Source: Cyanophora paradoxa CCMP329
Lineage: Eukaryota > Plantae > Glaucophyta
NCBI GenBank assembly: GCA_004431415.1
Contig: QPMI01000663.1
Coordinates: 1-62,741 of the forward strand
Reading direction: 5' to 3'
Length of the DNA: 62,741 nucleotides
The notes below the pieces were generated by a model. The model had not been told where the DNA came from, did no database searches, and saw only the letters and a list, made by a program, of their open reading frames with translations. Shown one piece after another: positions 9,879 through 62,741 of this stretch; within the stretch, counting starts at the first letter, position 1, and the number at the start of each line of letters is the position of its first letter. The position numbers and the translations under genes are program-made.

Positions 9879-10003
9879 CACTAGTTTCGCATTCAAGTGG
9901 TCTTTCTTGAAACCAGTGTCGAGTTCTATGAATCTATGCCTTACTGTTATTCATAGATCTCGACACTGGTTTCAAGAAAGACCACTTGAATGCGAAACTG
10001 GTG
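9879..10003. repeat. Long near-perfect hairpin (~51-55 bp arms, ~15 nt loop)
   Basis: agtttcgcattcaagtggtctttcttgaaaccagtgtcgagttctatgaat (9883-9933) pairs with attcatagatctcgacactggtttcaagaaagaccacttgaatgcgaaact (9949-9999) with one mismatch. Confidence 0.95.
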
Positions 10004-12525: not shown

Positions 12526-12676
12526 CTGGCTATAGTTTGCTTGGGCCGAAAGGCCCTGTGGCCTCGCTGGAGTGCACACGCGCGGGTGCTCTTATTTATA
12601 TATTCGTATACACATATGCATGTACACGGATTTTTTTTGCGTCGTGCATTTTAAACTCATGATCAGAATCAAGAAA

Positions 12677-14708: not shown

Positions 14709-14999
14709 CGAGACCGCGGGACCCGTGTTCCCGGTACCCTCCCCGCTCGAGTCGAGGGGGGTACGCAGGCCCTTTCAATCCTGCACGCGGGAATGAGACG
14801 GACGGTGTGCGACGTGCAGCCATTTATGAATTCTGGAGCTACACGTCCCGTCTCGCTTTCCTTGGTGCGCACCTGCGAACCGCGCGGCAGCGTCCAAGAG
14901 GCCTGCGTGCGCTCGGTCTCTGGGCCCGACAAGGCCCGTGCACCTCGCGACTCGTTCAAGCGGCGGCAGGCTTGTATCCCCCGTTCACTGCGCATGGTC

Positions 15000-17024: not shown

Positions 17025-19076
17025 CTAACCTTCCGAGCTCGAAGAGTCGCCATCGGACGAGGAAGACTCGTCCTCCTCCGCCTCGCCGGCGGAATCGGCG
17101 TCGACTTTGAGGTTCTTGCCGAGGGTGAAGACGATGCAGTACCTGCGCACGCGGGTCGCGGGATCAGGGCAGCCGGGGGACGCGCCCGCCGGCGCAGCGA
17201 ACCTAGGATCCGTCTCCCCGTCCACCACCACCTCGTGCTCCAGCAGGTGCCCCTGGCGGAGCGCCGGTTCGTCGCCGGCCGGGAAGAAAGGGGAGAGCGC
17301 CGGCGGGGGCCGGGGCGCTTACTCGGATAAAGACGACGTCTCCGTGTCGCAGGTCGAGGGAGATGCCAAGGGCGGGGAAACGCAGCCGATGCAGCCGCCG
17401 GTCACGGGTGCCGTCGGGGTGAAAGTAGACGAGGGCGGCGTAGGCCTCTTGCGCATCGTTCTTGTCCCGGTGGGACGTCGCGATCCTGGGGGGGAAAGGG
17501 GGGGGGGGGGGGGGGGGGGGAGAGGGAGGAAAGTCGGCATCCAAAGACGTTTTTTTAGGGCGAACTCACGTTTCCGGCGAGTTCATCCACTGCATCGACC
17601 AGAACCCTGCGCGCCCGCAACCGGCGTCGGGCCCGAAAGGGCGGGACGGCGCACGATGGCGGACCGTAATTGTACGGTTGCCGATCGAGGAGGCGAAGCG
17701 CGATCTCCGCCATGTCGCAGCCGGCCTTGACGTCGAAGGCGCAGAGGGCCGGGAACAGGTACTCGAGCACGCCGGCAAAGTACCCGTTCGCGAGGTGCAG
17801 CCGCCGGTTCGCGTTCGTGTCCGTGCCGAACTGCGGGTTCAGCGAGATCTGCAGGAGACCGGGTCGGCTCGCCCGCGCGGGCGGCCCGGGGCGCGGGGCG
17901 CGGGCCGCGCGCGGACCGGAATCGGGACGGACGCGCCCTGGGCCCGCTGGAAGCCGGTGGCGATCCGGGGCCCGCGCTTCTTCTTTGATTCACCGGACTT
18001 GCCCTCGGCGGGGGCCGCTTCCCGGGCCGCGGCGGCCCTCCGCGGCGGGCGCGCCGCTGCGGGGCGCGGGGGCGGCAGGAGCGCCTTCTTCTTGCCTCCG
18101 GGACGCCCGGCGAGCTTCTCCCGCATCACGTCGAGCCGCCCCGTCCGGAGCGCCGCCTCGGCCGCAGCGCGCGCCTCGTCGAGCAGCGTCTGGTCCTGCG
18201 CCGGCGCTCACGTTGCGGTCGCGGGCGGGGGCGCGGGAGGAGGGCGGCCGGCACCCGGGCCTCGTTGTACATGGTGCTGCGGCGGACGGAAAACCTAAAG
18301 GCCGTGGAGGCGCAGGCGACGGCGGCGGCCACCCGCTCGATCCCGGCGCCCTCGCGGAAGAGGCCGGGGAGGTGGACGGCGGCAAGGGCGCCGCTCAGGG
18401 AGATGCAGGCCTGCGCCCCGCGGTCTACGACGTAGTCGTGCCTCGCCTCGTCCTCCTTGGAGCAGCCAGGCGGGAGCGGGGCGACGTAGGCGGCGAACTT
18501 GCCCTGCGGGCGCGTGAGCCGTCGGCGCGGGGACGGGGCGGGACGGGGCGGCGGCGGCACCTCGGCCCGCTGCTTCCGGATGAAACGCGAGTCGACGCCG
18601 CCCCCGAGGAGGTTGCAGGGGAGCACGACGCACCGCTCCGGGGACGTGGCCCACGCCGCCAGCGCCGAGGCGTGCGGCGGTCCGTGCGGCCGTTCGAGCA
18701 GGGCCCCCTCGATCGCGCGGAGGGCGAGCAGGTCGACGGGCGGCGGGTTCAGCCCCAGCTCCGAGCCAAAGTGCTCTGCCAACCGGTCCGGCGGGCCCGT
18801 CATCCCCTCGGGTACTACGCCGAAAGGGAGCTGCGCATGCCGGCGGGGACCGTCGGGGCGCGCGCGCGCGCGCGGGAGAGCGCCCCTTCCGGAGCGCACG
18901 TGCAGGATCTGGCCCCTCCAGCGGACGGGACCGTAGGATCGGTAGCCGTACCGCCTCGTCGCAACGAGCTCGGCGCGCTTGTGGGGGTCTGCGGCGCGCG
19001 TCAGGGCCCCGGGCGCGATGGGGAGGGACGGCGGGGCGAACCATTCGCGCACGCTGGCCCGCCGGGCTTTGAGCAT
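17025..19076 (-). CDS. Multi-exon 2OG-Fe(II) dioxygenase, TET/JBP-like
   Basis: Spliced C-terminus reads ...YNYGFWSMQWMNSPETIATSHRDKNDAQEAYAALVYF...LRFPALGISLDLRHGDVVFIRGHLLEHEVV...RRYCIVFTL. It has HxD (17464-17472), a distal His and a terminal Arg in double-stranded beta-helix spacing. Confidence 0.75.
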
Positions 19077-39397: not shown

Positions 39398-40009
39398 TCA
39401 CGCGCTCGGCGCGGCGCCGTTCCGATCGGGCGGGGAGAGCCAGGCGGGGTCGACGAAGCGCGCGCAGAGGGCCCGCGGGAGGGCCGGGTCCAGCCCCGCG
39501 GCGGCCTCGGCGAGCCTCGCCGCGTAGGCCTCGCGCCCGGCCTCGTACAGGCGCCTGTGCGCCGCCGAGAGCGGCACGATCTCGAGGCCCGGGTCGGCGC
39601 GGCAGAGGGGGCACCGGAGCGGCGCGATCGGGAGGATGCAGCCGAGGCAGAAGACGTGCCCGCACCCGAGGCGCGTCGGGCGGCACGGGTGCTGGAGGCA
39701 GACGGCGCACACGGCGTCCTCGGCGAGCGCGGCGCGCGCGGCGGGGCGCCACAGGTTGCTCGCGCACGTCCAGGCGACGTGGGCGGCGCGGCCGACGGCC
39801 TCGTAGCGCGCCAGGGCGCCGGCGTCGCGGGTGGGGTCGCCCCCGGCCGGCGCCTCGACGATCTCGCTCACGATGCGGCTGGACTTGACGCCGAGCGCGA
39901 GCGGCGCGGCGATCACGCCCCGGGCGGCGTCGTAGGCGTGCCCGTCCAGGTACTTCCACCGTCCGAGGTCGTAGGTGCGCTCGGGCGCGGGCGCGGCGGC
40001 AGAGGCCAT
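39398..40009 (-). CDS. C3HC4 RING-finger protein (putative E3 ubiquitin ligase), intronless
   Basis: CAVCLQHPCRPTRLGCGHVFCLGCILPIAPLRCPLCR. Confidence 0.9.
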   Translation of the reverse strand: MASAAAPAPERTYDLGRWKYLDGHAYDAARGVIAAPLALGVKSSRIVSEIVEAPAGGDPTRDAGALARYEAVGRAAHVAWTCASNLWRPAARAALAEDAVCAVCLQHPCRPTRLGCGHVFCLGCILPIAPLRCPLCRADPGLEIVPLSAAHRRLYEAGREAYAARLAEAAAGLDPALPRALCARFVDPAWLSPPDRNGAAPSA

Positions 40010-40298: not shown

Positions 40299-43200
40299 AT
40301 GAAGCGGCCGGCGGACCCCGCCGCCCCCGAGGAGCCCACCTGCGCCCGAACCGGACCGGCACCGCCGCCGGTGCCGTCGCCCCCCAAGGCGGTCGCGGAT
40401 GCAGAGGGCGACCTCGAGATGGAGGACAAGGCGCCGGTGGGCGCGACCGCGCCGCCCTCGGGCGCGCCCCTCCCCGCCCCCGCCGCGAGCCAGATCGTGC
40501 GGACCACGGTCCTCGTCAAGAGCAACCCGCGCAAGGGCGCCGCGCGCGACGCGATCTTTGCCGTCCCCTGGCAGCCCGCCGACGTGGAGAGGCTCGAGTC
40601 GCCGTCCGCGCGCCGCGCCGTCGTCCAGATCTCGCCCCAGATCCTCGTCGAGCACGCGGGCGGCGCCCGGCGCACCCTCCGCGCGTTCAACGTCTTTGAC
40701 TTTGACGTCCCCAACATCCGCTTCCCCGAGGCGCTGGAGGGCGGCTCTCTCGGGAGGGAGCAGCTGAAGAACGCCAAGAAAGAGTACCTCGCCGGCGTGC
40801 TGGCGCGATGCGAGACCCTCGCCCAGTACTGGACCGAGGTCCCCGAGATCCTCGGCGTCGCCCGCCGCGCGCGCGACTTTGCCCGGGCCCTCCAGGCGCG
40901 CGGCGTCGCCGTCCTCGTCGTCTTCTCGGGCCTTAAGGGCTTCCACGTCTACGTGCGCGACGCCGACCTCGTCGCGGCGGTCGAGGGGCCCGGCGCCGCC
41001 GTGTACGCCAAGGAGGACCTCGACCAGTGGTGGGGCATCGTGCGCGCCAAGCTCAAGCGGCTCGAGGAGGACTCGGCGGCGGCGCTGCGCGACCCGTCGG
41101 TCCCGCAGGGGGAGAAGAGCCGCCTCCGCCGCTCCTTCTGGTCCAAGGCCACGCGCGCCGCCGGCCCGCGGCGCGTCCCCGGCATGTACAAGGCGGGACG
41201 GTGGGAGGGGCGCGAGGCCTTTGAGCGCGTCGTCGTCCCGTTTGCGGAGGAGCGCGGGATCGGGGCGATGGTGGAGCAGCTGGAAAGGGAGGGCGTCCTG
41301 GACCTCGCGCCGTTCCGCGTCAACAGCGGCTGCCGCTCCGACGAGCACCGCCACGGCTGGACCTCCTACTACCCCGTGGCGGTACCCCTGGAGGCCGTCG
41401 ACGACGCGGCGATCGCGGCGACGGTCCGCCTGCACGCCACGCGGCCCGACCCGCTCCTCGTCGCGTGGAACAGCGACGAGTGGCGCTGGCTGCGCGAGCT
41501 CGCGCGCGAGATCGCCCCCAAGCACACCCTCCACGTGGCGGCCCCCGCGGACGGCGCCCGCCCTCCGCCGCCCAAGCGCCCGCGCGCCCCCCCGGGCCCC
41601 CGGCCGCCGCCGACGCTCGATCGGGAGGGCGAGGAGGAGGAGGAGGAGGGCGGGGGTGCGGAGGACGGGGACGCCGAGGACGAGGCGACGATCAGCGAGG
41701 GCGTGGTGGAGCGCCTCGGGCTCCTCGCGTGCGGGGCGGGGCGCGGGCGGGGCTGGAGCGCCGCCCCCGGCCGCGGCCGCGGCGGCCGCGGCGGCCCCTC
41801 GATCTCCCACTTTGTTTCGCCGCCCGACGCGGACGGGGGCGAGCTCTGCCCCCACGGGCGGGACCACGAGCGCGTGGAGACGAGCATGTGGGTGGCGGAG
41901 AGCGGCATCCCCGGCGTCCTCGCCGCGACGGCGCACTGCTACTCGCTCCGCTGCGCCGGCGAGCCGCTCCTGGGCGCCCTCGCGTGGGCCCAGCCGGGCG
42001 CCTTTGGCGGCGCCTCGACCCTCGCCCAGGCCGACGCGGCGCTCCTGGGGCTCCACGCCACCGTCGCCCGCATCGCCGACCGGAGCCTCCAGCTTGCGGA
42101 GAGGCTCGCGCGCGCGGCGGCGGCGGCGGCGGCGGCAGAGGCGCAGGCGGCAGCGGCGGCGGCAGAGGGGGAGGGGCAGAGGGGAGGGGGCAGAGGGACG
42201 GGCCCGGAGGACGGCGCGCGCGGGGCGGCGCCGGCGCCGGCCGCCCCGCCCTCCCGCAGCGGCCGGCGGGGGCGCTGCCCCCGTCCGCGTCGCCTCGCAC
42301 GTCGAGGGCCGCTCCTACTTTGTCCGCGTCCCCTGCTGGAGCTGCGGTCACCGCAAGGGGAAGCTCTTCATCGACCAGACGAGCGGGGAGGCCGAGGAGC
42401 GCGGTCAGGTGCGCGTCCGGGCGTGCGGCGCGGCGGCGTGCGGCGGGCGCTGGGCCTGCGGGCCGCTGGAGCTCGGCGAGGACGACGCGACCGAGCTCCG
42501 CCTCGCCGAGGACGAGGTGGACATGTTCTCCCTCCGGCTCTTCCCCGAGCAGGCCAAGTCCATGGGCGCCGGCACCTTTGGCGCGACGGCCCGCAACCCG
42601 TACTGGGCGGAGCTCCCTCAGGGCGCCGTCGACTACCTCGATGCCGTCGTCGCGTGGCTGCGCACGCTCGGCGCCGGCGCGGCGCTCCCCTCCGACGGCG
42701 GCCCCGAGCGGCGCGTCCGGCCCCGCGGCGTCGGGCCCCCGGGCTCCTTTCCCCTCGAGGACGGCGCGACCGGCGGGCCGGCGGCGCGGCTGCACGCCAT
42801 GCTGCCGGACCTCGCGACGTGGCGCGCTGCCCTCCGCCTCCCCGAGCTCTCCCGGCCCCTCGCGATCCCGGCGGACTTTGATCCCGTCGCCCGACGCTGG
42901 ATCGACATCGACGAGCCGGCGGGCCCGGGGGCCCAGCGCTTCTGCAGCCCGGCCCCCATCCTCGCGCGCCTCGACGGCGGGAGGAAGACGATCTTTGTGC
43001 GGGCAGAGACCGGGAGCGGCAAGACGGAGACGTGCGTGGGGGGCCGCGAGGGCGCGGCGGGGCCGGGCCCCCGGGGGATCCTGCAGGCGGTGCTGGACGA
43101 CCCGGCGCTCGTGGGGCTCCCCAGCGTCCCCGGCGCGCCGCCCCGCGTCCTCTACGTGACGGCGGGGCGCGTCCAGCCCGACATCCTCGTCAAGGACCCC

Positions 43201-46200
43201 CGCTTCGCGGCCCTCTCCTACCCCTCGGCGTCGGGCGAGCGCGTGCCGGTCGCCTGGACCGTCTACAAGGAGGCCCGCCCCGAGGAGCTCGCCGACGCCT
43301 CGTTCGTCATGTGCACGGTGCAGAGCGGCCGCCGGCTCGAGGGCGACTTTGACGTCGTCATCGTCGACGAGGGGGCGCGGGCCCTCACGACCCTCACGAC
43401 GGGCGGGCCGTTCAAGGGGCCCGAGCACCACGCGCAGACGGTCGCCTGGTTCGACAGGGCGCTGGAGGCGCCGGCGCTCGTGATCGTCGCCGACGCCGAC
43501 CTGCTGGACGAGGACGCCGCCCTCTACGCCGCGCGCCGCCCGGGGGCGGACGTCATCTCGTACCTCAAGCGCGGCAGCAACGACGCGCGCCTGCGCTGGA
43601 CGGCCATCGACATTCGCTACGCCGCCGCCGTGATCGCCGCCAAGCTCCTCGCCGGCGAGGTCGGCTACATCGCCTGCTCGACGCGGCGCGCCCTCTGGGA
43701 GATCGAGTCCATCGTGCGGCGCCACATGCGGCTCTCCGGGCGCCGCTGCGAGTTCCTGTACGCCGACGCGGACCGGCGCGCGAGGCAGACGATGACGGAC
43801 TCGGACTACGTCTGCTCCGCCCTCTGCTACGCTTCCAACTACGCGATGCCCCAGGGCACCGACTTTTCCAGCGGGCCGCCCGCCAACTTTGTCGCCTACA
43901 TCGAGGAGGGGCGGACCGCCGACGTCAACGCCGGCTTTCAGCTCGTCCGCCGCCGCCGTCACGTGATCGGGCCCGACGCCTTTTTCTTCTGCCGGTTCCC
44001 CCGCAAGGCCCCCCTCCCCGACCGGCAGGGGCGGCCCCTGCACGCCCCCGTCGACTGGCGGGCGATCTACGGCGAGCTGGTGGACTCGGTGCGCGCGTGG
44101 AACGAGCGGCTCCCCGCGGAGAGGCGCGTGGCGACCGAGGAGCACTACCTCCGCGTGCGGGCCGTCCGCACGGCGCTCCGGAACGCGACGCACGCGTGCC
44201 CCATGCTGGCGTTTCACCTGAAGCTCCGCTCGCTCGGCAACGAGGGCCTCTACGTGTACCCCCTGCCCCAGCCCCCGAAGAAGCCCAAGGGCGGCGCGCG
44301 CGCGGGCCCGAGCGCGCCGGCGGCGCCGGCGGCGGGGGGCCTCCCCTGGATGCCGGAGGGGTACTCGGACTCTGCCGTCCCCCTGGCGGCCGAGGTCGAG
44401 GCGCGCGAGCGGCTCCTCCCCATCGTCGCCGCGCCGCGGCTGCTGGGCTACGACTGCGCCAAGGCGATCCGGGGGGCCATGGAGTACGGGACGTCCACGG
44501 TGGAGGTCTCCGACGCGGCGCGGCGCGCCTGGAAGCGCGAAAAGGCCGCCGCGCGCTTCGGGCTGCGGCCCGAGCAGGTGGGCGTCGCCGAGGTCCGCCT
44601 CTCGGAGCAGAGCCCGCCGGCGGAGATCTTCCGCCTCTCCAAGCGGTTCGCCCTCGACACCCTCCCGTACCTCGCCTCGGGGGCGGCCCCCGACGAGGAG
44701 AGCGCGACGCTCCTCCCGGACCACCGCGAGCGGCGCCGCCCCTTTGAGAGCGCCCTGCGGCTCTTTGAGCTGCTCGGCGCGCGCGTCCCGCCCGGCGGCG
44801 GCGCGGCGGCGGCGGCGAGCGACGTCGCGGCCGGCCTCCGTTACCTCTTCTGGGCGACGTGGGAGGGGCCGGAGGACTGCGGCGCGGCGCGCCTGCGCGG
44901 GCTCGGCGAGGCGATCGAGGAGGGTGGCATCTTTACCGACGGGCCCCTCGGGCGGCTCTTTGCAAACGCCTGCCGCGCGGCGTGGGAGCGGATCGCGATC
45001 CCCTACTCGCCGATCGCCGCGTACCGCGCCGACGCCCTCCGCTGGCAGTGCGCCGAGCTCTGGCAGCTCGAGTGCCTCCGCCCGGAGAAGCGCAACAAGG
45101 GGGCCGCCCCTCCCCCGATCGGGGACTGCGCGCGGCGCCTCCTGCACGACCTCGTCGTCCACGCCGCGGAGCAGCTGGGCCTCGGCGTGCTCGTCGCGGC
45201 GGCCGACGCGCGGCGCGTGGTGCGGGGCGGCGCGCGCAGGACCGTCAAGCGCACGCGCTACTGCTTCGACCCCGAGACCGTCCTCCTCGGCCTGCGCCTC
45301 TACGGGCGCGATCGGGACGGCCGCGGGGACGTCCCGCCCGACGCGACGCTCGGGGCGCTCCTGGCGGCCGGCGTGCGCTCCCTCCAGATCGCGCTCGTCC
45401 AGGATCCAAATTCCAAGCTCCGGGCGGCGGGCGCGGGCGGCGGCGGCGGCGAGGGCGGCGAGGGTGGCGCCCCGGGCGCGCCGGCAGAGGCGGGGGCCCG
45501 CCCCCGCCCGAGCGACGCGGCGAAGCGCGTCGTCCGGCTCCTCAAGTCGGGCGTGCACTCGGCGGTCTTCTTCTCCGGGGCGGCGCGCGCGGTCCTCGGC
45601 GAGGACGCCGCCCGCTGCTGGCGCGGGGCCGGCGACGGGGAGGAGGAGGGGGACGGGGCCACCCGCGCGTCGCCCTACGCAGAGGTCCTGGCGCGCGTCG
45701 CCGCCTCCGAGGCCCCGAGGCCCTCGCCCCGATCGCGCCGCCCCTCGGCGCCGGCGCCGACCCGACCGTCGCGGCGCTCTGCGCGCGGGACCTGGCGCGC
45801 GCCGCCCTCGCGATGGACGACGGGGCGGCGCGGGAGGGCCTCGGCTTCCCCGCCGCGGAGGAGTCTCCCGCCCTCCCCACCGAGGACGTGACCTGGCTCC
45901 TCGGTCGCCTCGCCGAGGCCGCCGGCGCCCCCGCCCAGCGCGCCTCGGAGTGGTGCCCCGTCGTGGAGGGGCGGGAGGGGCCGGACCCCTGCGTCGGGTT
46001 TGCGTACACGTCGATCTTTGCGCGGGACCTCCCCCAGGAGCGCCGCACGCTCCCCTCGTCCGGAATCGACGTGGCGCGCACGGGCTCCGACACCTCGGGC
46101 ATCAGCCTCTTCGTGGACGGCGCGGCGCGGCTCCTGCCCGAGGACCTCGCGCGCCCGCGCGTCGCCCGCGGGCCGCGCTCGTGCGGGGCGAAGATGCTCC

Positions 46201-46298
46201 TCTTCGTACCCCGCTCCACCTTTCAGCACTTTGGCGTACCCCTCTTGGCCCTTCCCCTCCGCCCCGCCCCGGCACCTACCCCCGCTCCCCCTGCGTGA
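40299..46298 (+). CDS. ~2000-aa AEP primase(-polymerase) fused to Zn-binding motifs and an SF2 helicase of the herpesvirus UL9/origin-binding-protein type; two apparent frameshifts (~42250, ~45715)
   Basis: AEP motif I VFDFD and motif II FSGLKGFHVYV. CPH...HCYSLRC and CWSCGH...CGAAAC. Walker A IFVRAETGSGKT, Walker B DVVIVDE, and LVIVADADL, GYIACSTR, YASNYAMPQGTDF. Confidence 0.8.
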
Positions 46299-46510: not shown

Positions 46511-48367
46511 ATGGACTCTACCACGACGATGAACCCCCACGCAGACCTCGCCACGACGATGACCGCGGCCGGCGCTCCCCGCCTCGTCAAGAAACCCGTC
46601 AAGAAACCCATCAAGAGCGACTTCTGCACGCGGATGGACCTCCTCCCGGTCGACCTGTCCGAGGCAATCCTGCACTACCTCGGGCGCGAGGACCGCCTCA
46701 AGATGCTCACCGTCTCCCAGCAGTCCCGCTCCTTTGCGCTCGGCACCTCGGGCGTCTCGAGCGGCTGGTTCGACGCCCTCGCGGTCGACGACGCGCTCGC
46801 CCTGCTCGTCGGAGGGCCCGGCGCGCCGCGCGGCGCCCGCCTCCGTCTCATCGCGGGGCGCGGTCACGGGGCGGAGATCCCGATCCCGTCGCGCCTCGGC
46901 GGCCTCGACGCGACCTTTGCCCTCCCGACAGAGCCCGGGAGCGAGGGCCGCTGGGTGTGCATCCTCTTCCCCCCGGCGGCGGCGGCGGGGGCCGAGGACC
47001 TCTCCCCGCGAGGCGCCATCATCCGCTACGGGCCGGGCGGGTTCGGCGACGCCCTGCAGATCCCGGCCGGGTTTCCCATTCACGACTTTGCCCGCGGTTC
47101 CGTCTCCATCGCCGGCGACGGGACGATTGTGCTCGGCGGCGAGCGCGGCTGGCTCGTCTGGTCCGCCGACGGCGGCGTCTCGGCGGTCGACGTCGGCGCG
47201 GCGGTCGCCGGCGTGGTGGCGTGCCGCCCCTCTCCCGACGCCTCGCGCGTCGCGATCTGCAGCGTCGTCGGCGACGGCGGCTCCGCGGGCGGCCGCGTCC
47301 TCGTCCGCTTCGTGGGCTCTGGCGAGTCTGCAGAGGGCGCCGCCGCGGCCCCCGCGGCCGACGCCGGCCCCCTGCGCTCGACAGCGGCGCGCACGCGGCT
47401 CTCCCACGAGCTCGCCGAGGTGGACGGCTCCGGGGACCCCTCGGCCCTCGGCGACTGGAGCGACGTGCCCCTGCGCGAGTGCGACGCGAGCCTGACGTGG
47501 AACGCGCGCGGCAACGCCGTGCTGGTGCGGATCAAGGTGGCGCGCAGCGGTATGGAGGCGGGCGATGTGGAGATGGGCGACGCCGGCGGCGATGTCGACG
47601 TCGACAGGATGGAGGACGACTGCAGCGTCGACGAGCCCGCCGCCCGCGAGGAGGCCTTTGTCGAGTTTATCGCGTCGGTGCGGCTCTCGGGCGGCGCTGC
47701 GCGCCAGGGCTGGTGGATCGTCTGCGGCGCCGAGCCCGCAGAGGCCTTTGCCGTCGGTCTGGGCGAGAACTGGCTCCTCCACGCGGCTCGGGACGTGGGC
47801 GGCATCCGGAGCGCGTCCATGTACGTCTACTACCTCGCCGGTGGCGCCTCTGGTCGCCCCACCATGGTCGAGCTGCACATGCCCTGCGAGGGCAAGTCGT
47901 GGCGATGCGTCACGCCCGTCGGCGACTGGAACTTCATCTACCAGGCCGCCGGTCAGTTTGAGCTCAACGGGACCAGCGTCGATCGCCCTTTTCTGGTCTC
48001 CGTGACGCCCTACGCCCGCGACCTGGAGTATTTCGAGCTGCCCGAGGCCAGCGGTCTGCTGGAGGCGCGCTCCATCCGCCCGCTGGGAGCCGTCGGACTG
48101 CACGGGGTGGCGGCCCTCGCGGTCGGGACGGACCAGGACGCCCCCGCGCCGTTCAACGTCGTCCGGTACATCCGCTGGTCGGGGATCGGGAGGCTGGCGG
48201 GTCAGGGCGGCCCGTTTGCGGCGTCGATCAGCACCCACCTGCAGCACAACACGTTTCGGCCGACCCGCGAGTGGCTGGACGATCGCTACTACACCGTCGA
48301 GGGCGAGCGGCACAACAACACGCTCACGCTCTTCCCCGGCGAGCCGCAGCCGACGCTGCACGTGTGA
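46511..48367 (+). CDS. F-box protein with beta-rich (propeller-like) C-terminus, intronless (~618 aa)
   Basis: MDLLPVDLSEAILHYLGREDRLKMLTVSQQSRSFAL matches the F-box consensus LPxELxxxILxYLxxxDLxxLxxVSK. Confidence 0.75.
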   Translation: MDSTTTMNPHADLATTMTAAGAPRLVKKPVKKPIKSDFCTRMDLLPVDLSEAILHYLGREDRLKMLTVSQQSRSFALGTSGVSSGWFDALAVDDALALLVGGPGAPRGARLRLIAGRGHGAEIPIPSRLGGLDATFALPTEPGSEGRWVCILFPPAAAAGAEDLSPRGAIIRYGPGGFGDALQIPAGFPIHDFARGSVSIAGDGTIVLGGERGWLVWSADGGVSAVDVGAAVAGVVACRPSPDASRVAICSVVGDGGSAGGRVLVRFVGSGESAEGAAAAPAADAGPLRSTAARTRLSHELAEVDGSGDPSALGDWSDVPLRECDASLTWNARGNAVLVRIKVARSGMEAGDVEMGDAGGDVDVDRMEDDCSVDEPAAREEAFVEFIASVRLSGGAARQGWWIVCGAEPAEAFAVGLGENWLLHAARDVGGIRSASMYVYYLAGGASGRPTMVELHMPCEGKSWRCVTPVGDWNFIYQAAGQFELNGTSVDRPFLVSVTPYARDLEYFELPEASGLLEARSIRPLGAVGLHGVAALAVGTDQDAPAPFNVVRYIRWSGIGRLAGQGGPFAASISTHLQHNTFRPTREWLDDRYYTVEGERHNNTLTLFPGEPQPTLHV

Positions 48368-50891: not shown

Positions 50892-51566
50892 ATGTGCCGC
50901 GAGGGCCAGCTGGTCACGACGCGCGACGGGGACGTGGTGTGCGATGCCTGCGGCGCGGCCGAGGCGGTCGTCGGGACCCTGGGGGGCAGCGAGAAGCCGG
51001 GGGCCGACGAGAGCCCGCCCGCGTCGCCCCGCGAGCCCTCGCGGTCCGAGGTCCGCATGGGGCGGCTCCTGGAGGGCGCAGCGTCGGCGCTGGGCCTCGC
51101 CGAGGCGGCGGTCCACGAGGCGCGGCTGCTGCTGGCGGACCGCGGGCTGCTGAGGGGCAGGAAGAGCGAGATTATCGTCGCCGGCGCGCTCTACTACGCG
51201 GCGGCCTCGGCCGGCGCCCCGCGCACCGTCGACGACGCGCTCGGCTGGCACCCCGACCTGCGCACACGCCGCGCGGCGCTCGTCAGGATGGTCCGCGCGA
51301 TCCACCGCCGCCGCGGCGTCGGGCGCATCCCCCGCGCGCCCGACTACGTCGACGCGCTCGCCCAGCGCGTGGGGCTGGACGGGGCGGACCTGCGGGCGGC
51401 GCGGGAGTACGCGGAGCGGCACCGAGACTCGGGAAGGAGCCCGATCGTTGTCGCCGCGGCGGCGTTGGTGGAGGCGGGCGGCGCTTCGACGCGCGAGGCC
51501 GCGCGCGCGGCCGGCATTACGACCGTTGGCATCCAGGTCTGCATCAAGGCGTTCGCCGCCGCCTAG
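50892..51566 (+). CDS. TFIIB-like transcription initiation factor (Zn ribbon + cyclin folds), intronless
   Basis: C..GQLVTTRDGDVVCDACG Zn ribbon; ASALGL...HEA..L...LLRGRKSEIIVAGALYYA...PRTVDD cyclin repeat; second repeat GRSPIVVAAAAL. Confidence 0.82.
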   Translation: MCREGQLVTTRDGDVVCDACGAAEAVVGTLGGSEKPGADESPPASPREPSRSEVRMGRLLEGAASALGLAEAAVHEARLLLADRGLLRGRKSEIIVAGALYYAAASAGAPRTVDDALGWHPDLRTRRAALVRMVRAIHRRRGVGRIPRAPDYVDALAQRVGLDGADLRAAREYAERHRDSGRSPIVVAAAALVEAGGASTREAARAAGITTVGIQVCIKAFAAA

Positions 51567-52388: not shown

Positions 52389-53003
52389 CTAAGCCGCGTC
52401 CGAGGACGGGCTCTCGCCTCCCGCATCGGCGCCCTCGGGGTTGACGTGGACGGCGATCTGCGTGCCGCCGCCGGCGCTCCACTCGGCGGCGAGCTTCTTC
52501 ATGGCTTCGACGCGCTTCGATGCGGATCCGGTGCGCCCCTTGAGCGCCTGCTCGTAACCCTGGGCCAGGCTGCGGTTGGGAAACGGCGCAGCGACGGCGA
52601 GGAGCCGCCAGGGCCCGCGGCTCTTGGTGAACGAGCCGCGGATGGTGCCGCGCGAGTGCTCCTTGAACCGCCGCGCGAGGCTCGCCGTCTCGCCGCAGTA
52701 GAACATCCGGCCGTTGTGCAGCAGGTACACGACGTGCTGCTTCTCAAACTGGTGGTGGAACGGGCGGGCCTTGCCGCCGCCGCCACCGCCGCCGCCGCCG
52801 CCTCCTCCCGCTGCGGCCTTTGCGCCGACGCCGACGCCGCCGTCGCCCCGCTCCCCGTCGGCGCTCCCCTTGTCCGCGTCGGAATTCGAATCCTCGTTCG
52901 TCTCGCCGCCCCCGTCCCGCCGCTCCTGCCGCCCCTCGTCCCCGCCAACGGCGTGCGCAGGCGCCGGTGCGGCCGCGGCCAGCGACGTCGGCTCCGCCTC
53001 CAT
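52389..53003 (-). CDS. GIY-YIG nuclease, SLX1-like
   Basis: HVVYLLHNGRMFYCGETASLARRFKEHSRG..GSFTKSRGPWRLLAVAAPFPNRSLAQGYEQALK. Confidence 0.85.
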   Translation of the reverse strand: MEAEPTSLAAAAPAPAHAVGGDEGRQERRDGGGETNEDSNSDADKGSADGERGDGGVGVGAKAAAGGGGGGGGGGGGKARPFHHQFEKQHVVYLLHNGRMFYCGETASLARRFKEHSRGTIRGSFTKSRGPWRLLAVAAPFPNRSLAQGYEQALKGRTGSASKRVEAMKKLAAEWSAGGGTQIAVHVNPEGADAGGESPSSDAA

Positions 53004-53097: not shown

Positions 53098-56000
53098 TTA
53101 TGCGTTCAGCAGATGCCCTGCCGGTACAGGAGCCTGCGGCGGCGGCGGGGGAGGCGGCGGCGGGGCGGGGCTGGGCTTGAACCGCTTCGGCGGCCCCCCG
53201 CTCGGGGGCTCGACGCGGGCGACGGGGCGGAGGATGCCGGCGGGCGGGCGCGCCGTGGGCGGCGCCGGTGCGCAGAGCAGGGCCGGAGGGGGGCAGGGGT
53301 GCGGGGGTCGCGGCGTGTCGGGTCGTGCGCGCCCGTCCATCCCTCGCCGCTCCCCTGCCACGAGCCGTCGCCGACCCCGCTCCCATTTGCAGGATCGGAG
53401 CGCAGAGGGCCGGGGGGCGCCGCCCCTCAGCCAGGGGCCGCGCCTTGGGCGGCCTCCCGCGCCGCCTCGCGGGCGGGGCGCCCCGCCCGCCCCGCCCCCG
53501 CCGCGCGACGACGAGGAGGAAGAGGCCGGCGGCGGCGAGGGCGCCGGCCGCGCAAAGCCCAGGAGCTCCAGCACCGCTCGGCGCCGGTTCGGATCTCGAC
53601 GGTGCCGTTGCGGCCCTCGAACTCGACGGGGAAGAGGGCGCTCACGCCCGTCCACTCGCGAGGTCCGCCCTCCTGGCTCGCCGTCCACGCCCCGCCGAAC
53701 CGCTTCAGCAGGACGAAGCGGGACTCGAACTCGCCGCTCGGCAGGTCGATCGTCTGGACGAGGCGCGCGTACACCACGTTGGGCAGCGGGCTCGCCGCGT
53801 GCGTCGCCAGCGCCGCCACCACCTGCCCCGCCGCGTACGGCGAGGCCGACCGCCAGCGCAGGTGGTAGAGGGGCGGCGGCGGCCCCGCCGCGGGCACGGC
53901 GACGGGGGCGGGAACGGCGCCACCGCGGCCCGGCCCCAGGCCCCGCCGGCGGCTGAGGCCACGCCGGCGGCCGCCGCGGATGAGCCCGCGGGAGCAGTAG
54001 CTCGCGTGGTGCTTGGCCCCGGCCGCGTTCTTGAACGCCTCGCGGTGCGTCGGGGGCGGTAAAGGCGGGAGGGCGCGGGGCGCGGGGCGGGCGCGGTCTC
54101 ACCCGGTCGCAGGGCTCGCAGTAGCGCTGCTCGGCGATCGCCAGCGCCCGCTCGACGGCATAGTCGGCGTCCCAGGGCCGCCGAGGGCCCCCCGCGCTGC
54201 CGGTGCGGCGCCGCTTGGCCTCTTCCGCGCCGGCCGAGCCGCCCCCGTCCTCCTCGTGCTCTTCCTCTTCCTCCTCCTCCTCCTCTTCCTCTTCGCCCAA
54301 GTCGAACGAGCTGGAGCTCCCGCACTTGCCCGCCGGCTCCGGGCTCGTCGACGGTGTCTGCGTCTGCGTCGCCGGCGCCGGCGCCGCCTCGCCCCCGTCC
54401 TCTTCCCCTTCCTCCTCCTCGCGCCCCTCGTTCTCCTCCCTCGCCGCCTTGTCGCCGCGGCGCCCGCCGCCCGTCTCCCGCCCCTTGTTCCGCCCACCCC
54501 CTCGGCGCGCCGCGCGGGGCGCCGCCGGGCGGGGTACGGGGTCGGCCGTCGGCCCCTCCAGGAGCGGCGGCTCGGGCCCGTCGGGGCTCTCCCGCGCGCG
54601 GCGCCTCTCCTCCCCGTGCTTCAGCGCCAGCTGCTCGAGGTACGCCACCGCCGAGGCCGCCGCGCGCGCGCGGGCCGAGTAGTCGTAATTCTGCGTCGCA
54701 GTGATGACGCTGTGCCCCAGCAGCTTGGCTGCGCGGGGAGGCGCGGTGACGGCGGGCGCAGCGGCGGGGCGCGGGAGCGGGCGCGGGCGCGGGAGCGGGG
54801 GTACGGCGCACCCGTCCCCTCGACGACGGCGGCGGCCGTGTCGCCGGAGATGCGATTCGCGGCGGCCTCGTCCCGCACGTGCGTCGTGATGATGGCGCGG
54901 ATGGCCTGCGCCGTCACCGGCACGCCCGTGTACTTTTCCGTCACCTGCGGTGCGTGAGCCTGTCCCCTTCAGCCCGCCCGCCCCCTCGCGCGCCTTTTTC
55001 ACAAAGTTGCTCCAGCCGGCGTCGGAGAGGAGCGTTCCCGTCGGGCCGGTGAAGAGCCAGCCCTCGTCGGCGGCGCCCGTCGTCGGCGGGAAGAGGAGGC
55101 GGCGGTAGCGCTCGACGTACAAGGTGAGCGGCTCCTGGACAAACCCGGGGATCGGAAAGGTCATCGCGCCGGCAGTCTTGGCCGTCTTGGACGAGAGGAC
55201 CGGCTCGGCGCCCCCGACATCGATTCTCATCTTTGTGAGCGCGATCGCCCACGCGCCCTGGTCCCGTCGGAGCGTGTGACCGATCCTGCGCAGGGCGCGC
55301 GGTGGCCATGGGGGCGGGGCGGGAGGGGTGGCGGAGGGGGGGGTACGGCACCTGAGGCGGCGGACGATGCCGACGCGCGAGGGCGTCGAGACGAGGAGGG
55401 AGAGGAGGAGCCCCTCGCGGAGGGCGAGGGCCTTGTCGTACTCGAGCGGCGCCCGCTCCGCCGCCTCCAGCGCGTCCAGCCGCGCCGAGAGGAGCGTCTC
55501 AAACGGCACCCAGTTCGGTCCGCGCTCGCGCCACTTGACCCCCTCGCGCTTCTCCTTTCTCAGCTGGGCGAGCAGGTTGCGGAGGCCGCGGGCATGGGGC
55601 CCCTCGGAGCCCGACGCCGCGCCCGACGTGCGCGCGTGGACAAAGGCGTGGGCCTGGAGCGCCGCCTGCGTGTACCCCGCCAAGGTGGCGGCCTGCACCT
55701 TGCGCTCCCCGCGGAGAAACGTGAGGAACCGCATCCACAGGTCGATGAAATCGACGCGGGCGCCGGAGAAGAGGTCGAGCGTCGGGGCGCCGTCGATCTT
55801 CTCGCGGAGGGCGCAGTACCCCAGGAAGCGCAGCAACGTCGTCCGCTCGTTGGCCAGCGTCGAGGAGCGCTCGACGGCGGCGCCGGGGCGGTCGGGGTTG
55901 AGGGCGCGGGTGCGCCACTCTTCGTACGCGGCGAGCTGCGCCTTGAGCTCCCGCGACTGATCCTCCTCGCGCAGGCCGTACGGGGCGGCGCGCTCGGCCG

Positions 56001-56197
56001 ACGGCTCCTCGGCGGCCTCGGCGTCGGAGCCCGCGTCGCCCGGCGCCGGCAGCGGCGGCGGCGGCGGCGAGCTAGAGGGGGAGGACGACGGGCCGGCGCC
56101 GGGATCGCTCCCCTCGCTCCCGGAGCTCGTCGAGCTCTCCCCAAGGTCGACGGCTCGAATCACCACGGCGGCGCCCGGCGGAGCCTGGCGGGACGCC

Positions 56198-56228
<31 letters not shown>

Positions 56229-57926
56229 GGGGCCGCTCCTCGGCGGGGAGGACCACGCGCTCGGGGTCCGGCAGGGCGTCGGCGTCAAAGAGCGTGATCG
56301 ACGGGTCGAGGATCATGCTCTCCAGCATCGACCGGTACGCCTGGCGCTTCTCCGCGATAAACTTGGCGTTGTCCTTGGCGACGGCGTCTGACATGGGGCC
56401 CCCCGGGCGGTAGAACATCAGCTCGCCGTGCGCCAGCTCGTCCGACCACGAGAAGCCCGTCGCCGCCTCCAGCGTCGCGCCCTCGGCGAACCAGAGGATC
56501 CCTGCCCAGGGCCCGTCAAGGGGGCGCTGCGGGGATGGGCGCCGAGGGAGAGGCGCGCACACGGCCCGCACTGGTACCCGTCCACCTGGAGCCGCCCGCC
56601 GCACGTCTCGTCCACGTACTGGTGCGCGGGAAACGCCGCCTTGGCCGCGTAGACGAGCGACGGGTCGCAGGGCTCGCCGAGCGAGTCCCAGTACCGCGTC
56701 TTCGCCCCGCCGAGCACGAGGAGGGTCCAGTGGCCGCCGCTCGCCGAGCGCTTCTCGGCCCCGCGGCGCACGAGGCTCGTCGAGACGGGGCAGATGACGG
56801 TGCCGCCCCTCGCCACGAGCGACAGCGCGCGCCGCTTACGGCGCTCCTCGCTCGCAGCCGCGTACCGGCGGAGGACCGAGGCGAGGATGTCGACGCTCAT
56901 CGGGTAGAGGGCCCGCACGCGGCCGTTGTTGGCCTTGCGCAGGATGAGGGTGAGCACGTTGGCGATGTGCGTGTCCGTGAGCCACTCGCGCGCGCCAAAG
57001 ATCGGGACGCGGCGCGCAGGCGGGACGGGCGCGGGAACGGCGGCGGCGGCGGCGACGGGGTCGGCGCCCTCGAGGACGAGCCGCTGGCGCTTGAAGTCGG
57101 CGAGGAGGCTCGCGTCGCGCCCCGGTAGGTCCTTTAGGAACATTTCCACGCCGAGCGCGCTGATGAAGCCCCAGGTGCGGGCAAAGCCGCGCGAGGCCTC
57201 GCCCTCGACCTCGGAGCCAAGGCCGGCGTACCGCGTCAGCGTCTGCGTGACGAGGCCGAAGCGCTCGCGGCCGATGCTCAGCGTCGTCACGTTCCAGCGG
57301 TGCGGCCCGTCCCGCGCGAGGTCCGGGAGGCGCTTCTCGATCTCTCGCCGCACGCAGTTTGTGTCGCGGGAGGAGCCGTAGAGGGCGTCGGCGAGCGAGG
57401 CCATCGGCACCCAGAGCTGCAGGTCCGGCACCTCGATCCGCTTGGCGCGCAGCGCGTACATGCGCTTGCCGCCGACGCGTATGACGTGCAGGTCGAGGCG
57501 CGCGAGGGTGCGGGGCCGGCGGCGCTCGTTGGCGGCGTAGAACGAGGCGGCGGCGGCGCGCTTGCGCTGCTCGTCCGTGACCTCCCAGGCCTCGGCGACC
57601 ACGTCCAGCACGTAGCGCATCGCCACCATCCGCGGCGGCGACTCGGGCGTGCACTCGCGCCGGCGGACGGCGCCAGGGCCTCGAGCAGCAGGATGGCGTT
57701 CTCGTCGGGCAGCGGCCGCGTCGGCACTCCGTAGCGCGCGGTGAGGAGGTCCTCGGCCTCGGCCTCGGGCCCGTCGGGGTCGGGGCGCGGCTCGCCGAGG
57801 ACGCGCGCCAGCTGGGCCGAGCACGCGGCGGGGCCCGCCGTCGTCGGAGGACGACGAGGCGCTCCGGCCCCAGGGCCCCGCGTACTCGACGAGCTCGTAG
57901 GCGTCGTGCACCGTCGGAAAGGACAT
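53098..57926 (-). CDS. Multi-exon fusion: N-terminal domain + Ulp1/C48 cysteine protease + tyrosine recombinase + C2H2-like finger
   Basis: Protease: EWLTDTHI, GHWTLLVL, YWDSL, QVDGYQCGP|WILWFAE (intron ~56502-56560 keeps the frame). YR: STPSRVG (R), SSKT (K), QAIR (HxxR variant), LLGHS (H), QNYDY (Y). Downstream CEPCDR..FKN..AKHHASYC. The 3' end is approximate. Confidence 0.82.
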
Positions 57927-59040: not shown

Positions 59041-59345
59041 GGGTTCCGCACCAAAATTGTTTTTGATGTCTACGAGCCCTCCCAATTGCTTGCGATGCGT
59101 TGGTGCGGGGCCCTCATTTTATTTTTCCGGTTTTTTTGCAGGGTTGGGATCTGTATTGGACCTTTTGCTTTTTTGTTTTGGAAATTTAGAGGGCCGACCG
59201 GCACCGCACCTCTTTTGCATCCGAGTGTTTCGTGCATGCACTAACTGCATTTGCGTGTTGGTGCGGCGCGAACCCAAATTATCGAGGTTGCCGCCCCCAG
59301 CCATTTCCATACATGGCCAAGTTTGGATTTTTTATGTTGGCGCGG
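59041..59345. promoter_or_regulatory. Putative recombination junction (attP-like) with symmetric TTGGTGCGG boxes centred on 59156
   Basis: ccgcaccaa 59046-54 / ttggtgcgg 59258-66 and ttggtgcgg 59100-08 / ccgcacc 59204-10 are both symmetric about 59156. An extra ttggcgcgg lies at 59337. The repeat boundary is at 59161. Confidence 0.65.
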
Positions 59346-59469
59346 CAAGCTCGCTCATGATGCAGCATTCAGAGGGGTATGCCCCCGTATGTACACTCGC
59401 GCGGCGGGCTCTGCTCCTGCTCCCGTCGCGCTGGGGGCGGGCAGGTCGCCGCCGGCGTCCGGCACGCCC

Positions 59470-60396
59470 TCACTCGTCCGCCCCGCGGATCTTTTTGCGG
59501 AGCTGCATATCCTTGGGCTGGATTGTGATGCTGCGCGCCCCCGGCGGTTACGTGCCCCTGCACGGGGCGCTACAGAGTTTTGGAGGGGGTAGAAGGGGCG
59601 GCACACCGCTTGGCATGGATCGCGAGGAGGTTGCTCCCCTCGAACGTCTCGATGGCGTAGCTGCGTCTCGACGATCAGTTGCAGAGCTCAGCATTTTGTA
59701 TACTTGTAAATCTCGCGCACTGCTCGGTGGCCTCGCGGAGAGCAAGGACGGCCTGCCGGCACCAGCGAAGAGCGGGAGTGTCGGTCAGCCTTGCCTCACG
59801 AAGCTCTTTCAGGACATCTTCGGTGATCTCCTTGACGGTGCGGGTGAATGGGGCCAGCGCAATGATGGGTTCGGTTCGCTTCTGCCACTTGCGAATCTCT
59901 CTGCGAGCGACGGAGCATCGGATTAATATTCACTGAGCCTCCTGCACTTTAAACTTAGACAACGTCATGATCAATTGCAACGTACCGGAGGGCAACCGTG
60001 CTCCGCAAAGGCGTGCGCGGTTATAACAAATCAGATATATAGAGATCTAGAAACATTAAGAATTTAATGATAGTCACTTTAAAATAGCTATAGTAAGAGA
60101 TCTAGATCTAGAATGATATCGATCATGATACGATGACATTTGAACCACTTATAGTCACTTTAATTAATTTAGCCTTTTGGGTTCAACGGTTACAAGGCTC
60201 GCATACTGATCATGATCATGATCATGAACATGAACTCGGACCTGGACGGTAACGGTGAGGCTTCTTGACGCCTCCTGCGGCAGGAGCCGCTTTACGGGCC
60301 GCCTTCGACGCGAGCTTCCGCTCGCCTATGTTTGCGAATCGCTTCCGCGGGGCCTTGCCCCCGTGCTCTTTTGCGCCGTGTGCTTTGTCCGTGCAT
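59470..60396 (-). CDS. Second copy of the histone H3 variant gene (1-nt indels, probably sequencing error)
   Basis: Same sequence as 11594-12525 except single-base deletions (e.g. gtgcat vs gtgccat at the start codon). Confidence 0.8.
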
Positions 60397-60547
60397 CTGG
60401 CTATAGTTTGCTTGGGCCGAAAGGCCCTGTGGCCTCGCTGGAGTGCACACGCGCGGGTGCTCTTATTTATATATTCGTATACACATATGCATGTACACGG
60501 ATTTTTTTTGCGTCGTGCATTTTAAACTCATGATCAGAATCAAGAAA

Positions 60548-62569
60548 TCAAGGGGCGTCGGACTCGGATTTCGAGCCATCGGCGTCCGAGGCCCCCGCGG
60601 CCTTGATGCGAAAGACGTTCTTCGGCATGCGAACGAGCGGCTCGCCCTTGCTGTCGACGAGCTTCCTCACGCGCTCGTCGAGCCGCTTCTCGATCTCCTC
60701 GAGCGCCGCCTCGTCGGCGCGCTGCAGGTTGGGGAGAAAGGCGACAAAGTCCGCCGGGCTGACGCCGTCGCCCACACGCGCGCGAGGCCCGGGAGGCGCT
60801 GCAGGACGCGGGCGCAGGCGGCCAGGTCCGAGTAGGCCTTGGCGCACACCGAGCGCTCCTCGAGGCGGAGGCCGCAGGCCTCGAGGATGTGGTTGTAGCG
60901 CGGCTCGACGCGGTCCGCCGAAAGTAGCCCCAGCTGCGGGGGTTCCGCCCGTTGGCCTCGACGTAGCGCTCGTACGCGCCGAGAATGCCCGTCGAGGCGA
61001 GGAGGAGGCAGCGGATCCGCTCCCGCCCGCGTGCTGGGCCCGCAGGAGGAGGGCCCGCCGCGCCGCGGGGTCCCCGTCGAGCTGGATCCCGACGAGGGCG
61101 GCGTCGACGCCGCGCCGCAGCCCCCGCTCGAGCTCGCGGAGGGAGAGCGTCCCCTCGCTCCTCTCCGAGACCGCTCTTCCCCTCGCCGCCTCGCCGCCGC
61201 TACCGCTGCCGGCGCCCTCGTGCTCCGCGTCCGCGTCCGAGCCCGAGTCCGACGTCTCCTCGCCGTCCCGATCCCCGATCGGCCGCCTCGAGCTGGGTCT
61301 CGAACTCGGCCCGCTTCTGCTCCTCCCACTCGTTTCATCGGCCCGTCCTCGCCGGCGGGCTCGCCTCCGGATCCACCTCCGCCGCCGCGCGCCGGGGGCC
61401 TCGGTCTCCTCGCCTCGCCCTCGCCCTCGCCCGCGCCATCCTCGTCGTCCTCCTCGTCAAAGTCCTCGCGCTTGCACGTGTAGGCGTCGTAGAGGATGCG
61501 CTGCAGCTTCTCGCTTTCCCACGGCGGCCGCCGCTCCGACGAGGCGGGGCGGCGCTGCCGCTTGGCCGGCGGGCCCTTGGGCGCCTCGATGGCCAGCGGC
61601 GGCTCCTCGTCCTCGAGCTCGTCCTTGTCCTCGGCGGCCGCGGGGGCCATGCGCCTCGCGCGCGTCGCCCGGGCCGCCGGTGCCGGCGCCGGCGCCGGAG
61701 CTCCCCCGGCCGCCGCCGCAGAGCTCCCCTCGGCCGCCGTCGAGGCCTGAGAGGCCCCGGCGCGCCCCGAGCGGCGGGGCGTCGACGCGTTCGAGTCGGC
61801 CCCGCCCTTGCGCGCGGGCGCGGCTGGGCGGCCGAGGGGGAGCCCCGGCGGGAGGCTCCTGGGAGGCAGACTCGGCCGGCGGGCCGCCGGTCCCCTGGAC
61901 GAAGAGGGCCCCGCCCCGCCGCTCGTCGGGGGCGCGCGGCGGCACGAGGTCAGCGCGGCGAGCTGGATGGCGCGCGAGACGCCCTCGGCCGCCGTCCAGG
62001 ACTCGGGGCGCTCGGCCTCGTGGACAAAGGCGCGGTAGGCGAGGTAGCCGTCGACGCGCGACGAGGGGACGAGGGCGGAGAGCGTCGGGTGCGGCTCGCT
62101 GCACGCGCTCTGGAGCATGGGGCACTCGATCTCGCCCTCTTCGTCCCCGGCCGCGCCCGTGGGCGCGAGAACCTGCGCAGAAGGGGGCGATGGGCGGACT
62201 CCGGGAGCGGGGGGGAAGGTGGGGGTACGGGCGCGGGGGCGGCACCTTGGGGACGCAGGCGAGGCACACGAGGCCGTGGCGCTGGAGCAGGTGACCCGTC
62301 GGCTCGTCGTTGAGGTCGATCGCGCGGTCGAGGTCGCCCCCGCCGGCGAGCTCGGCGATGTTCCTGGCCAGGCACGCCGGCACGTACGCCGGCGGGAGGA
62401 GGCGCTCCGCGGCGCAGACGCTGCACCGGGGGCGCACGTCGAGGTCGAGCCATGCCGAGATGTACTTGGGGCGGGCGATCCGCACGGGCCGCGCGTCGAT
62501 CGGCGGGGCCCCCGATGCTGCCTCCTCCTGGGAGGACGCCGCCTGCTTGCCCTTGGCCTTGGCCCCCAT
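60548..62569 (-). CDS. Second copy of the RING-like/acidic protein gene (indels)
   Basis: Copy of 12677-14708. Confidence 0.6.
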
Positions 62570-62741
62570 CGAGACCGCGGGACCCGTGTTCCCGGTACCC
62601 TCCCCGCTCGAGTCGAGGGGGGTACGCAGGCCCTTTCAATCCTGCACGCGGGAATGAGACGGACGGTGTGCGACGTGCAGCCATTTATGAATTCTGGAGC
62701 TACACGTCCCGTCTCGCTTTCCTTGGTGCGCACCTGCGAAC

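Follow-up and report, generated by a model that had tools for sequence, protein, structure and literature searches.

Proteases of the Ulp1 type recur in transposons, and their role there has been treated as an open question (PMC2836005). According to the same source, Ulp1 or OTU domains occur in Ginger1, Mutator and Helitron proteins, and the mobility enzyme of Ginger1 itself bears a protease for ubiquitin-like proteins. Among DNA transposons with a tyrosine recombinase (YR), the oomycete elements CryptonS and CryptonF-2_PS likewise encode a C48/Ulp1 peptidase; it is described as an additional protein in CryptonS and as present 'in addition to a YR' in CryptonF-2_PS, and for CryptonF-2_PS the text leaves it unstated whether peptidase and YR are fused, so that an in-frame chain there is possible (PMC3212892). 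In this study, we analysed 62,741 bp of DNA from the glaucophyte Cyanophora paradoxa CCMP329 (contig QPMI01000663.1, positions 1 to 62,741; hereafter the window), in which a gene predicted to encode a C48 cysteine protease fused in frame to a YR stands at one end of a repeated unit of about 48 kb. A preliminary description of this locus had pointed to the fusion and overlooked the oomycete Cryptons, which are the closest precedent.

The mobility enzymes of Ginger1, Mutator and Helitron are of the DDE or rolling-circle kind and the Ginger1 protease is C-terminal (PMC2836005), whereas the protease in the window is N-terminal to a YR. Compared with the Cryptons, the recombinase of the window matches neither GCR1_C nor DUF3504, and its unit of ~48 kb carries replication and chromatin genes. 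Starships are likewise large eukaryotic elements with a YR as the first gene, a variable His position and a circular junction (PMC10104507; bioRxiv 10.64898/2026.09.21.753150), but the unit studied here is not fungal, its YR lacks a DUF3435 match and bears a protease, and it has a primase-helicase and a TFIIB-like gene of its own. Polinton-like viruses (PLVs) also combine a YR with a primase-helicase (PMC10120064), and the nearest Atlas clusters of our recombinase are of Preplasmiviricota; however, the unit is larger and intron-containing, without terminal inverted repeats and without a detected capsid or packaging ATPase. In the yeast 2-micron plasmid, a selfish element, SUMO and ubiquitin control the nuclear YR Flp, a functional precedent for a protease-bearing YR (PMC6594588); Flp itself has no protease and is likened here by function, not by sequence. 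The YR-rich tandem giant repeats of Amoebidium, comparable by description only, form clusters of up to 50 kb with YR relatives in algae, but they have Plavaka transposase flanks and are intron-poor, and the passages on them mention no protease fusion (PMC11244446).

The theme of a protease paired with a mobility enzyme is already known; what appears undescribed is a protease joined in frame to the N-terminal side of a YR from a distinct clade, together with the 48-kb unit that carries this gene. The main text of the C. paradoxa genome paper does not mention a recombinase, integrase or virus (PMC6704402), and the word recombinase does not occur in the text seen of the methylome paper that reports giant-virus insertions in this alga (PMC12344493). 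Judged by titles and abstracts, with most subscription journals, Repbase and supplements outside the scope, the literature on C. paradoxa and tyrosine recombinases held no account of the fused family.

Fusion of the protease to the recombinase

The preliminary description had read a protease set (HW...DS...Q..GYQCG), a YR with R, K, QxxR, GH and Y, and a zinc finger, and all of these are present on the minus strand. It had also placed a splice at about 56502-56560, and our analysis bears this out. When the 105 possible in-frame, stop-free GT/GC..AG joins were scored against the homolog P0004, removal of intron 1 (56560-56502) ranked first with a score of 319, compared with 295 for the runner-up and 97 for the unspliced sequence. 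The preferred reading frame changes at this intron, and the third-position GC content is 0.89-0.96 across all six exons. After this splice the peptide reads GYQCGPWILWFAE and agrees with the catalytic helix found in ChlaDub2, an enzyme of the CE clan; therefore, the protease domain is completed in the same exon that continues, stop-free, into the recombinase. The segment WILWFAE, previously taken as the start of the recombinase, is part of this protease helix, and the recombinase begins at 55986, ~170 codons further on. Between the splice and the first Met of exon 2, 15 of the 29 residues are identical to P0004, which argues that this peptide is coding and depends on the upstream exon.

Both domains were also found in nine C. 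paradoxa gene models (P0004-P0007, P0020-P0023 and P0025), and P0020 contains GYQCGPW within its own chain. In the model P0024 the N-terminus and the recombinase are retained, but of the protease there is just the beginning; the fragment P0028 is chimeric. These results support the earlier proposal of a single gene, and judged from sequence the fusion is almost certainly real.

The protease and its probable activity

The residues of the protease lie on the minus strand in the order of the CE clan: the Trp of REWL at 56984, His at 56732, Asp at 56687, Gln at 56588 and Cys at 56570, that is, a His-Asp-Cys triad with the oxyanion Gln and the upstream Trp motif. Of 11 chains of the family, 7 show the His motif, and the Asp motif and the Gln/Cys motif are each visible in 9. 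Of the 30 Atlas neighbours of the protease, 26 are annotated as Peptidase_C48. The search of the PDB matched the window protease to NopD (E=0.047) and the spliced homolog P0004 to ChlaDub2 (E=0.0052), and so the closest solved relatives are a deubiquitinase/deneddylase (ChlaDub2, the best match) and a type III effector. The Pfam C48 profile reached P0004 with E=0.027 and 14.7 bits, under its curated cut-off of 20.7, and gave no match for the protease exon of the window. Neither domain was detected by Pfam or PHROGs in the unspliced pieces of the window, and the domain calls therefore rest on the spliced homologs and on the other searches. The protease is probably active on a ubiquitin-like tag, and deSUMOylation or deNEDDylation of chromatin would be a plausible function.

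The recombinase and its relatives

The recombinase shows the set expected of a tyrosine recombinase, R-K-(H)xxR-H/W-Y behind a core-binding domain, with Arg at 55377, Lys at 55188, Gln 54908 and Arg 54899 forming QxxR, His at 54714 and Tyr at 54687 on the minus strand. For P0004, weak but concordant matches were obtained to a PHROG integrase (E=3.7e-4), XerC (E=0.0031) and Phage_integrase (E=0.022); the recombinase profile found nothing in the PDB. The catalytic R, K, R, H and Y are retained in 40, 40, 40, 38 and 39 of 41 recombinase domains, respectively. Gln at the His position of HxxR has been reported in about 1% of YRs, and the Cre mutant H289Q is active, yet accumulates the covalent intermediate (PMC2943603). 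The change from H to Q had been put forward as a possible family marker, a view that the alignment does not support: the first position of HxxR is K in 21 of the 41 full domains, N in 6, H in 4, R, S and Q in 3 each, and a gap in one, and it varies between Q, K and R within the fused clade itself. Therefore, Gln marks a subfamily only.

The Starship captain profile DUF3435 had no match in P0004-P0007 (E<=1) or in 101 relatives (E<=0.01 or 0.05), and the Crypton-type profiles DUF3504 and GCR1_C had none in P0004-P0007 or the relatives, the comparison being by profiles alone. On the side of the viruses, the two nearest Atlas clusters of the recombinase are viral, most commonly Preplasmiviricota (0.96, 0.95). 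Reverse transcriptase and RNase H, as expected of DIRS, Ngaro or VIPER elements, were not found in the 62 open reading frames (ORFs) of the window.

A search of 1.84 billion representatives with the recombinase profile gave 102 matches, namely eight named Cyanophora models and 94 others, of which the three looked up came from ENA or JGI collections. Five seeds and 36 further whole-domain matches were aligned (41 rows; 62 partial matches omitted). In the resulting tree, built by a quick method on these sequences and no named reference YRs, the six fused members fell on one side of a branch with an SH-aLRT of 99. Compared with the window, five fused models share 35-86% identity over the recombinase and 45-70% over the protease, and this span indicates that the fusion is old within the lineage. 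A profile built from the fused proteases gave no convincing match among the other 94 proteins (a single one reached E=0.036), and translating 79 loci from aquatic metagenomes in all six frames yielded none. These comparisons are moderate evidence for a gain of the protease on the glaucophyte branch, rated no higher because many of the searched relatives are fragments. A word-based protein search at comparable length gave no match among 7,997 candidates, and there was none in plasmid and phage collections and no relative in four scans of viral contigs; Cyanophora-type queries matched nothing in metagenome and prokaryote contigs, and one further prokaryote scan gave 1 match but no locus.

Some features of the unfused relatives were also observed. 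A common unnamed N-terminal domain of ~150 aa (25 aligned) is found among P0027-P0117; P0120 has chromodomains, and P0039 has a weak chromodomain match. On the metagenome contig L010 (4323-19215), perfect inverted repeats with a length of 3,138 bp or more enclose a pogo/Tc5 DDE transposase together with a related recombinase, an arrangement like that of Tec elements. In L031 (6486-18568), the neighbours of a related recombinase are a ResT/TelK telomere resolvase, a helicase of the DEAD-box type and an ORF bearing DnaJ, and this locus is possibly a linear plasmid or virus.

Gene structure

The first residue of P0004 aligns at ATG 57926. Six exons, 57620-56561, 56501-55352, 55285-54994, 54944-54812, 54728-54103 and 54038-53583 on the minus strand, give 1,239 stop-free residues, with introns of 59, 66, 49, 83 and 64 nt, of which three are GT-AG, one is GC-AG and the fifth ends in GAG here. 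Position 53098, where the gene had been thought to end, marks no more than the point at which a long ORF stops; the homologs place the end near 53430 and finish in the motif RRRGRPPK, which we take to be AT-hook-like. The N-terminal region is conserved among the fused proteins, and Pfam gave no family for it; profile comparison with the N-terminal domain of the unfused relatives gave a weak E=0.063 (reversed control, E=0.38). A reading of the N-terminus as Bro-N, made by eye, was dropped because profile searches gave no support. The profile zf-C2H2_jaz matches the finger in P0005 and P0006 (E=0.04).

The 48-kb unit

The coordinates of the features are collected in Table 1. The spacing of the long direct repeat sets the period of the unit at 47,876 bp. 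Read most simply, the window passes from host DNA through one unit into the beginning of another, and the end-to-start junction is of the kind that a circle or a tandem insertion would produce. Alternatively, the two copies may be long ends of the LTR kind, members of a dispersed repeat or the product of overlap in the assembly. The recombinase gene is the first gene of the unit and reads inward, its ATG being 1,234 bp from the junction at ~59160, which agrees with the ~1.2 kb and the captain-like placement noted in the preliminary description. Both junctions share the 5-bp TGTAT, followed by a 4-base mismatch and then CC (TGTAT-GCGT-CC at 11276; TGTAT-TGGA-CC at the junction 59152..59165), and 7-bp inverted matches lie near the unit ends. 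The first repeat copy contains the greater part of a gene whose cysteine pattern, judged by eye, resembles that of a RING.

Genes of the unit contain introns of the host type. The primase-helicase gene (40299..46240) has frame breaks in the window copy and three homologs on other Cyanophora contigs. On tig00021045, the RING, primase-helicase and TFIIB genes occur in the same order (g17656, g17657, g17660/61); on tig00000540, the helicase g1925 and the recombinase model g1937 are 12 gene numbers apart; and on tig00000269, two fused models are 10 gene numbers apart. The HRD-motif exons at 17088-17860 possibly encode an oxidase of 5-methylcytosine (5mC) inside the unit.

The motif TTGGTGCGG was observed at 59046, 59100 and 59258 (=11382), with three copies within 115 bp of the junction and one elsewhere, compared with 0.8 expected per window for a motif chosen post hoc. 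These are possible candidate binding sites of the recombinase.

Table 1. Positions of the features in the window and in the protease-recombinase gene.
Feature	Position	Strand	Remarks
Protease-recombinase gene	53427..57926	-	Six exons, ~1,380 codons, ATG 57926; end placed from homologs (about 53430)
N-terminal region, ~300 aa	57021..57926	-	Conserved among fused proteins; 70% identity to P0004 over last 200 aa
C48/CE-clan cysteine protease	56446..57020	-	Split by intron 1
Intron 1	56560-56502	-	59 nt, GTGCGC...GGGCAG, GT-AG; Trp codon split T|GG
Core-binding (SAM-like) domain	55522..55986	-	90% identity to P0004; relatives match Phage_int_SAM profiles weakly
Recombinase catalytic domain	54619..55521	-	R, K, QxxR, H, Y
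Introns in recombinase catalytic domain	55351-55286; 54993-54945; 54811-54729	-	GT-AG; GC-AG; GT-AG
Acidic low-complexity linker	54184..54618	-	36-46% identity to homologs
Zinc finger C-x2-C-x12-H-x3-C	54120-53994	-	Spans intron 5; 73% identity to P0005
Intron 5	54102-54039	-	64 nt; non-canonical GAG acceptor in window copy
C-terminal domain	53583..53882	-	Conserved, no named family; 84% identity to homologs; no Pfam match
RRRGRPPK at C-terminus	53464-53441	-	Homologs end in same motif
Left end of unit, first copy of long direct repeat	11276..14880	+	99.3% identical to 59152-62741 (self-BLAST)
Left end of unit, second copy	59152..62741	+	Runs off window end
End-to-start junction	59152..59165	.	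Unit right end meets second left-end copy
GIY-YIG endonuclease gene	52389..53003	-	Directly downstream of recombinase gene; Pfam GIY-YIG E=4.4e-8
TFIIB-like gene	50892..51566	+	Pfam TFIIB E=5.8e-7; 99.5% identical copy on another contig
618-aa gene, weak N-terminal F-box	46511..48367	+	Pfam F-box E=0.066
Likely AEP primase + superfamily-2-type helicase fusion	40299..46240	+	Weak DNA_primase_S, LigD_Prim-Pol and CyRepA1 matches
RING finger gene	39398..40009	-	Pfam zf-C3HC4_3 E=4.3e-5; 96% identical copy on another contig
Possible TET/JBP-like dioxygenase exons	17088..17860	-	HRD exon: sole Pfam match Tet_JBP, E=0.28, weak

Proposed mechanism

The recombinase seems likely to move the unit; we suggest that it would excise and integrate the 47.9-kb unit via a circle, as has been shown for Starships (bioRxiv 10.64898/2026.09.21.753150), and that the unit would be copied by its own primase-helicase as a head-to-tail element. 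The tethered protease might strip the recombination complex, and the chromatin to which it binds, of SUMO, ubiquitin or NEDD8, and thereby shield the recombinase, chiefly its covalent DNA intermediate, from removal driven by host SUMO/ubiquitin. A precedent is yeast Flp: SUMO is attached to it, Slx5-Slx8 ubiquitinates it, and the protein is degraded (PMC6594588). A recombinase without the conserved His may persist as a covalent adduct and would benefit from tag removal. Taken as a whole, that one protein tethers a C48 protease stripping ubiquitin-like tags to the recombinase moving the 47.9-kb unit has, in our judgement, about an even chance of being correct. A broader proposal is offered tentatively, as somewhat doubtful: the protein would be the captain of undescribed self-replicating, capsid-less, intron-containing glaucophyte elements of ~48 kb, which reached a Starship-like design independently and carry an anti-silencing kit of tethered protease, RING, F-box and TET-like 5mC oxidase.

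Several observations weigh against the proposed mechanism or its parts. The domain E-values are weak, the His motif is absent in 4 of the 11 chains, whose models appear mis-spliced and may also have decayed, and single-sequence structure predictions were unusable (pLDDT 36 and 40). The homologs are predicted gene models of a single proteome and do not represent transcripts. The window copy has four frame breaks, near 57840, 57670, 53580 and 53500, and one odd acceptor at intron 5; all four breaks fall outside both catalytic domains, and they and the GAG acceptor are probably assembly errors rather than decay, because the repeat copies of the window differ by 18 gap openings over 3.6 kb, nearly all single-base. 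The ends of the unit are inferred, since the right flank and the empty site lie outside the data, and two of the three helicase contigs (tig00021045 and tig00000849) have no recombinase model. Loss of Ulp1 also deregulates Flp in yeast (PMC6594588), so that deconjugation need not stabilise a recombinase. Finally, the SUMO consensus psi-K-x-E/D was found 0 times in the window model and 0-2 times in seven homologs; this lack disfavours simple self-deSUMOylation, and so does the nature of the best solved match, a deubiquitinase/deneddylase.

Should the 48-kb unit be mobile, YR elements that carry cargo extend beyond the fungi, and the recombinase is a candidate large-payload integrase from an alga. 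The family also presents an Ulp1-type protease that is fixed to a YR throughout members of 35-86% identity.

Alternative explanations

The recombinase could instead be a resolvase of episome multimers or of a tandem array, with the role of the protease unchanged. The primase-helicase and the head-to-tail appearance of the unit would suit such a role, the relative in L031 adjoins a telomere resolvase, and in L010 a sister-group recombinase shares the space within perfect 3.1-kb inverted repeats with a pogo/Tc5 DDE transposase, as in Tec elements, whose YR is considered to resolve intermediates. However, neither a DDE transposase nor an rve integrase was detected in the window, and no long inverted pair within it links the unit ends, which leaves the recombinase as the sole candidate integrase there; moreover, placement at the very end of the unit suits integrases. 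We therefore regard a pure resolvase as unlikely.

Slightly less probable again is an endogenous virus, a Polinton-like or giant-virus remnant with a capsid too divergent to be recognised, whose virion maturation protease gave rise to the C48 domain. The viral Atlas clusters of the recombinase point in this direction, as do the YR, the primase-helicase and the occasional cysteine protease of PLVs (PMC10120064), the giant-virus insertions known in C. paradoxa (PMC12344493) and the several ORFs without a family. On the other hand, no capsid or packaging ATPase was found in 62 ORFs with Pfam or in 30 with PHROGs, although these libraries miss divergent capsids and the spliced ORFs were scanned piecewise; the viral-contig scans gave no relative, introns of the host type interrupt the genes, the protease is similar to C48 of eukaryotes, and 48 kb exceeds the usual 15-30 kb (PMC10120064).

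The preliminary description had raised self-processing, in which the protease would cleave its own polyprotein and free the recombinase. The low-complexity linker of 94-118 aa between the domains in six fused proteins would offer room for it. C48 enzymes cleave after the Gly-Gly of a ubiquitin-like fold, but a di-glycine is absent from the linker of the window and occurs at no conserved place in the other five, and we consider self-cleavage improbable. That the protease and recombinase are separate genes, or that their join is a prediction artefact, is very improbable: there is a conserved Met 36 codons into exon 2, but with intron 1 retained the protease would lack its catalytic helix and continue into 45 residues that are unrelated, the peptide ahead of that Met shows conservation, and nine other models are fused.

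Other features of the window

Returning to the fused gene's surroundings, the motif CGGCCGAGCTCTG was present in 22 copies (<=1 mismatch, both strands) at 15007-50534 and nowhere else in the window; the copies are often inverted pairs and also occur in a 198-bp tandem array. Its enrichment was not significant as tested because the copies are clustered, and they could be origin or promoter repeats. Within the unit, a block of lower GC (55-64%) at 23500-31500, which encodes a spliced AAA ATPase (E=1.8e-5), may have been captured or may be an insertion nested in it, and a spliced ORF at 22233-22900 (+) looks SET-domain-like by eye, a match that Pfam did not give.

To the left of the unit, there is a hairpin at 9879-10003 with 55-bp arms that are 96% complementary, and lower-GC ORFs at 4654-6800 (-) encode a probable membrane protein with no convincing family match. 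Of ten window proteins looked up, six occur in EukProt as identical sequences, and two of these have cluster-mates named C. paradoxa at 96-99.5% identity, so the host is most likely this glaucophyte or a near relative. The window is eukaryotic in character, with high GC and short introns, and a STAND-type ATPase gene occupies positions 1-4040.

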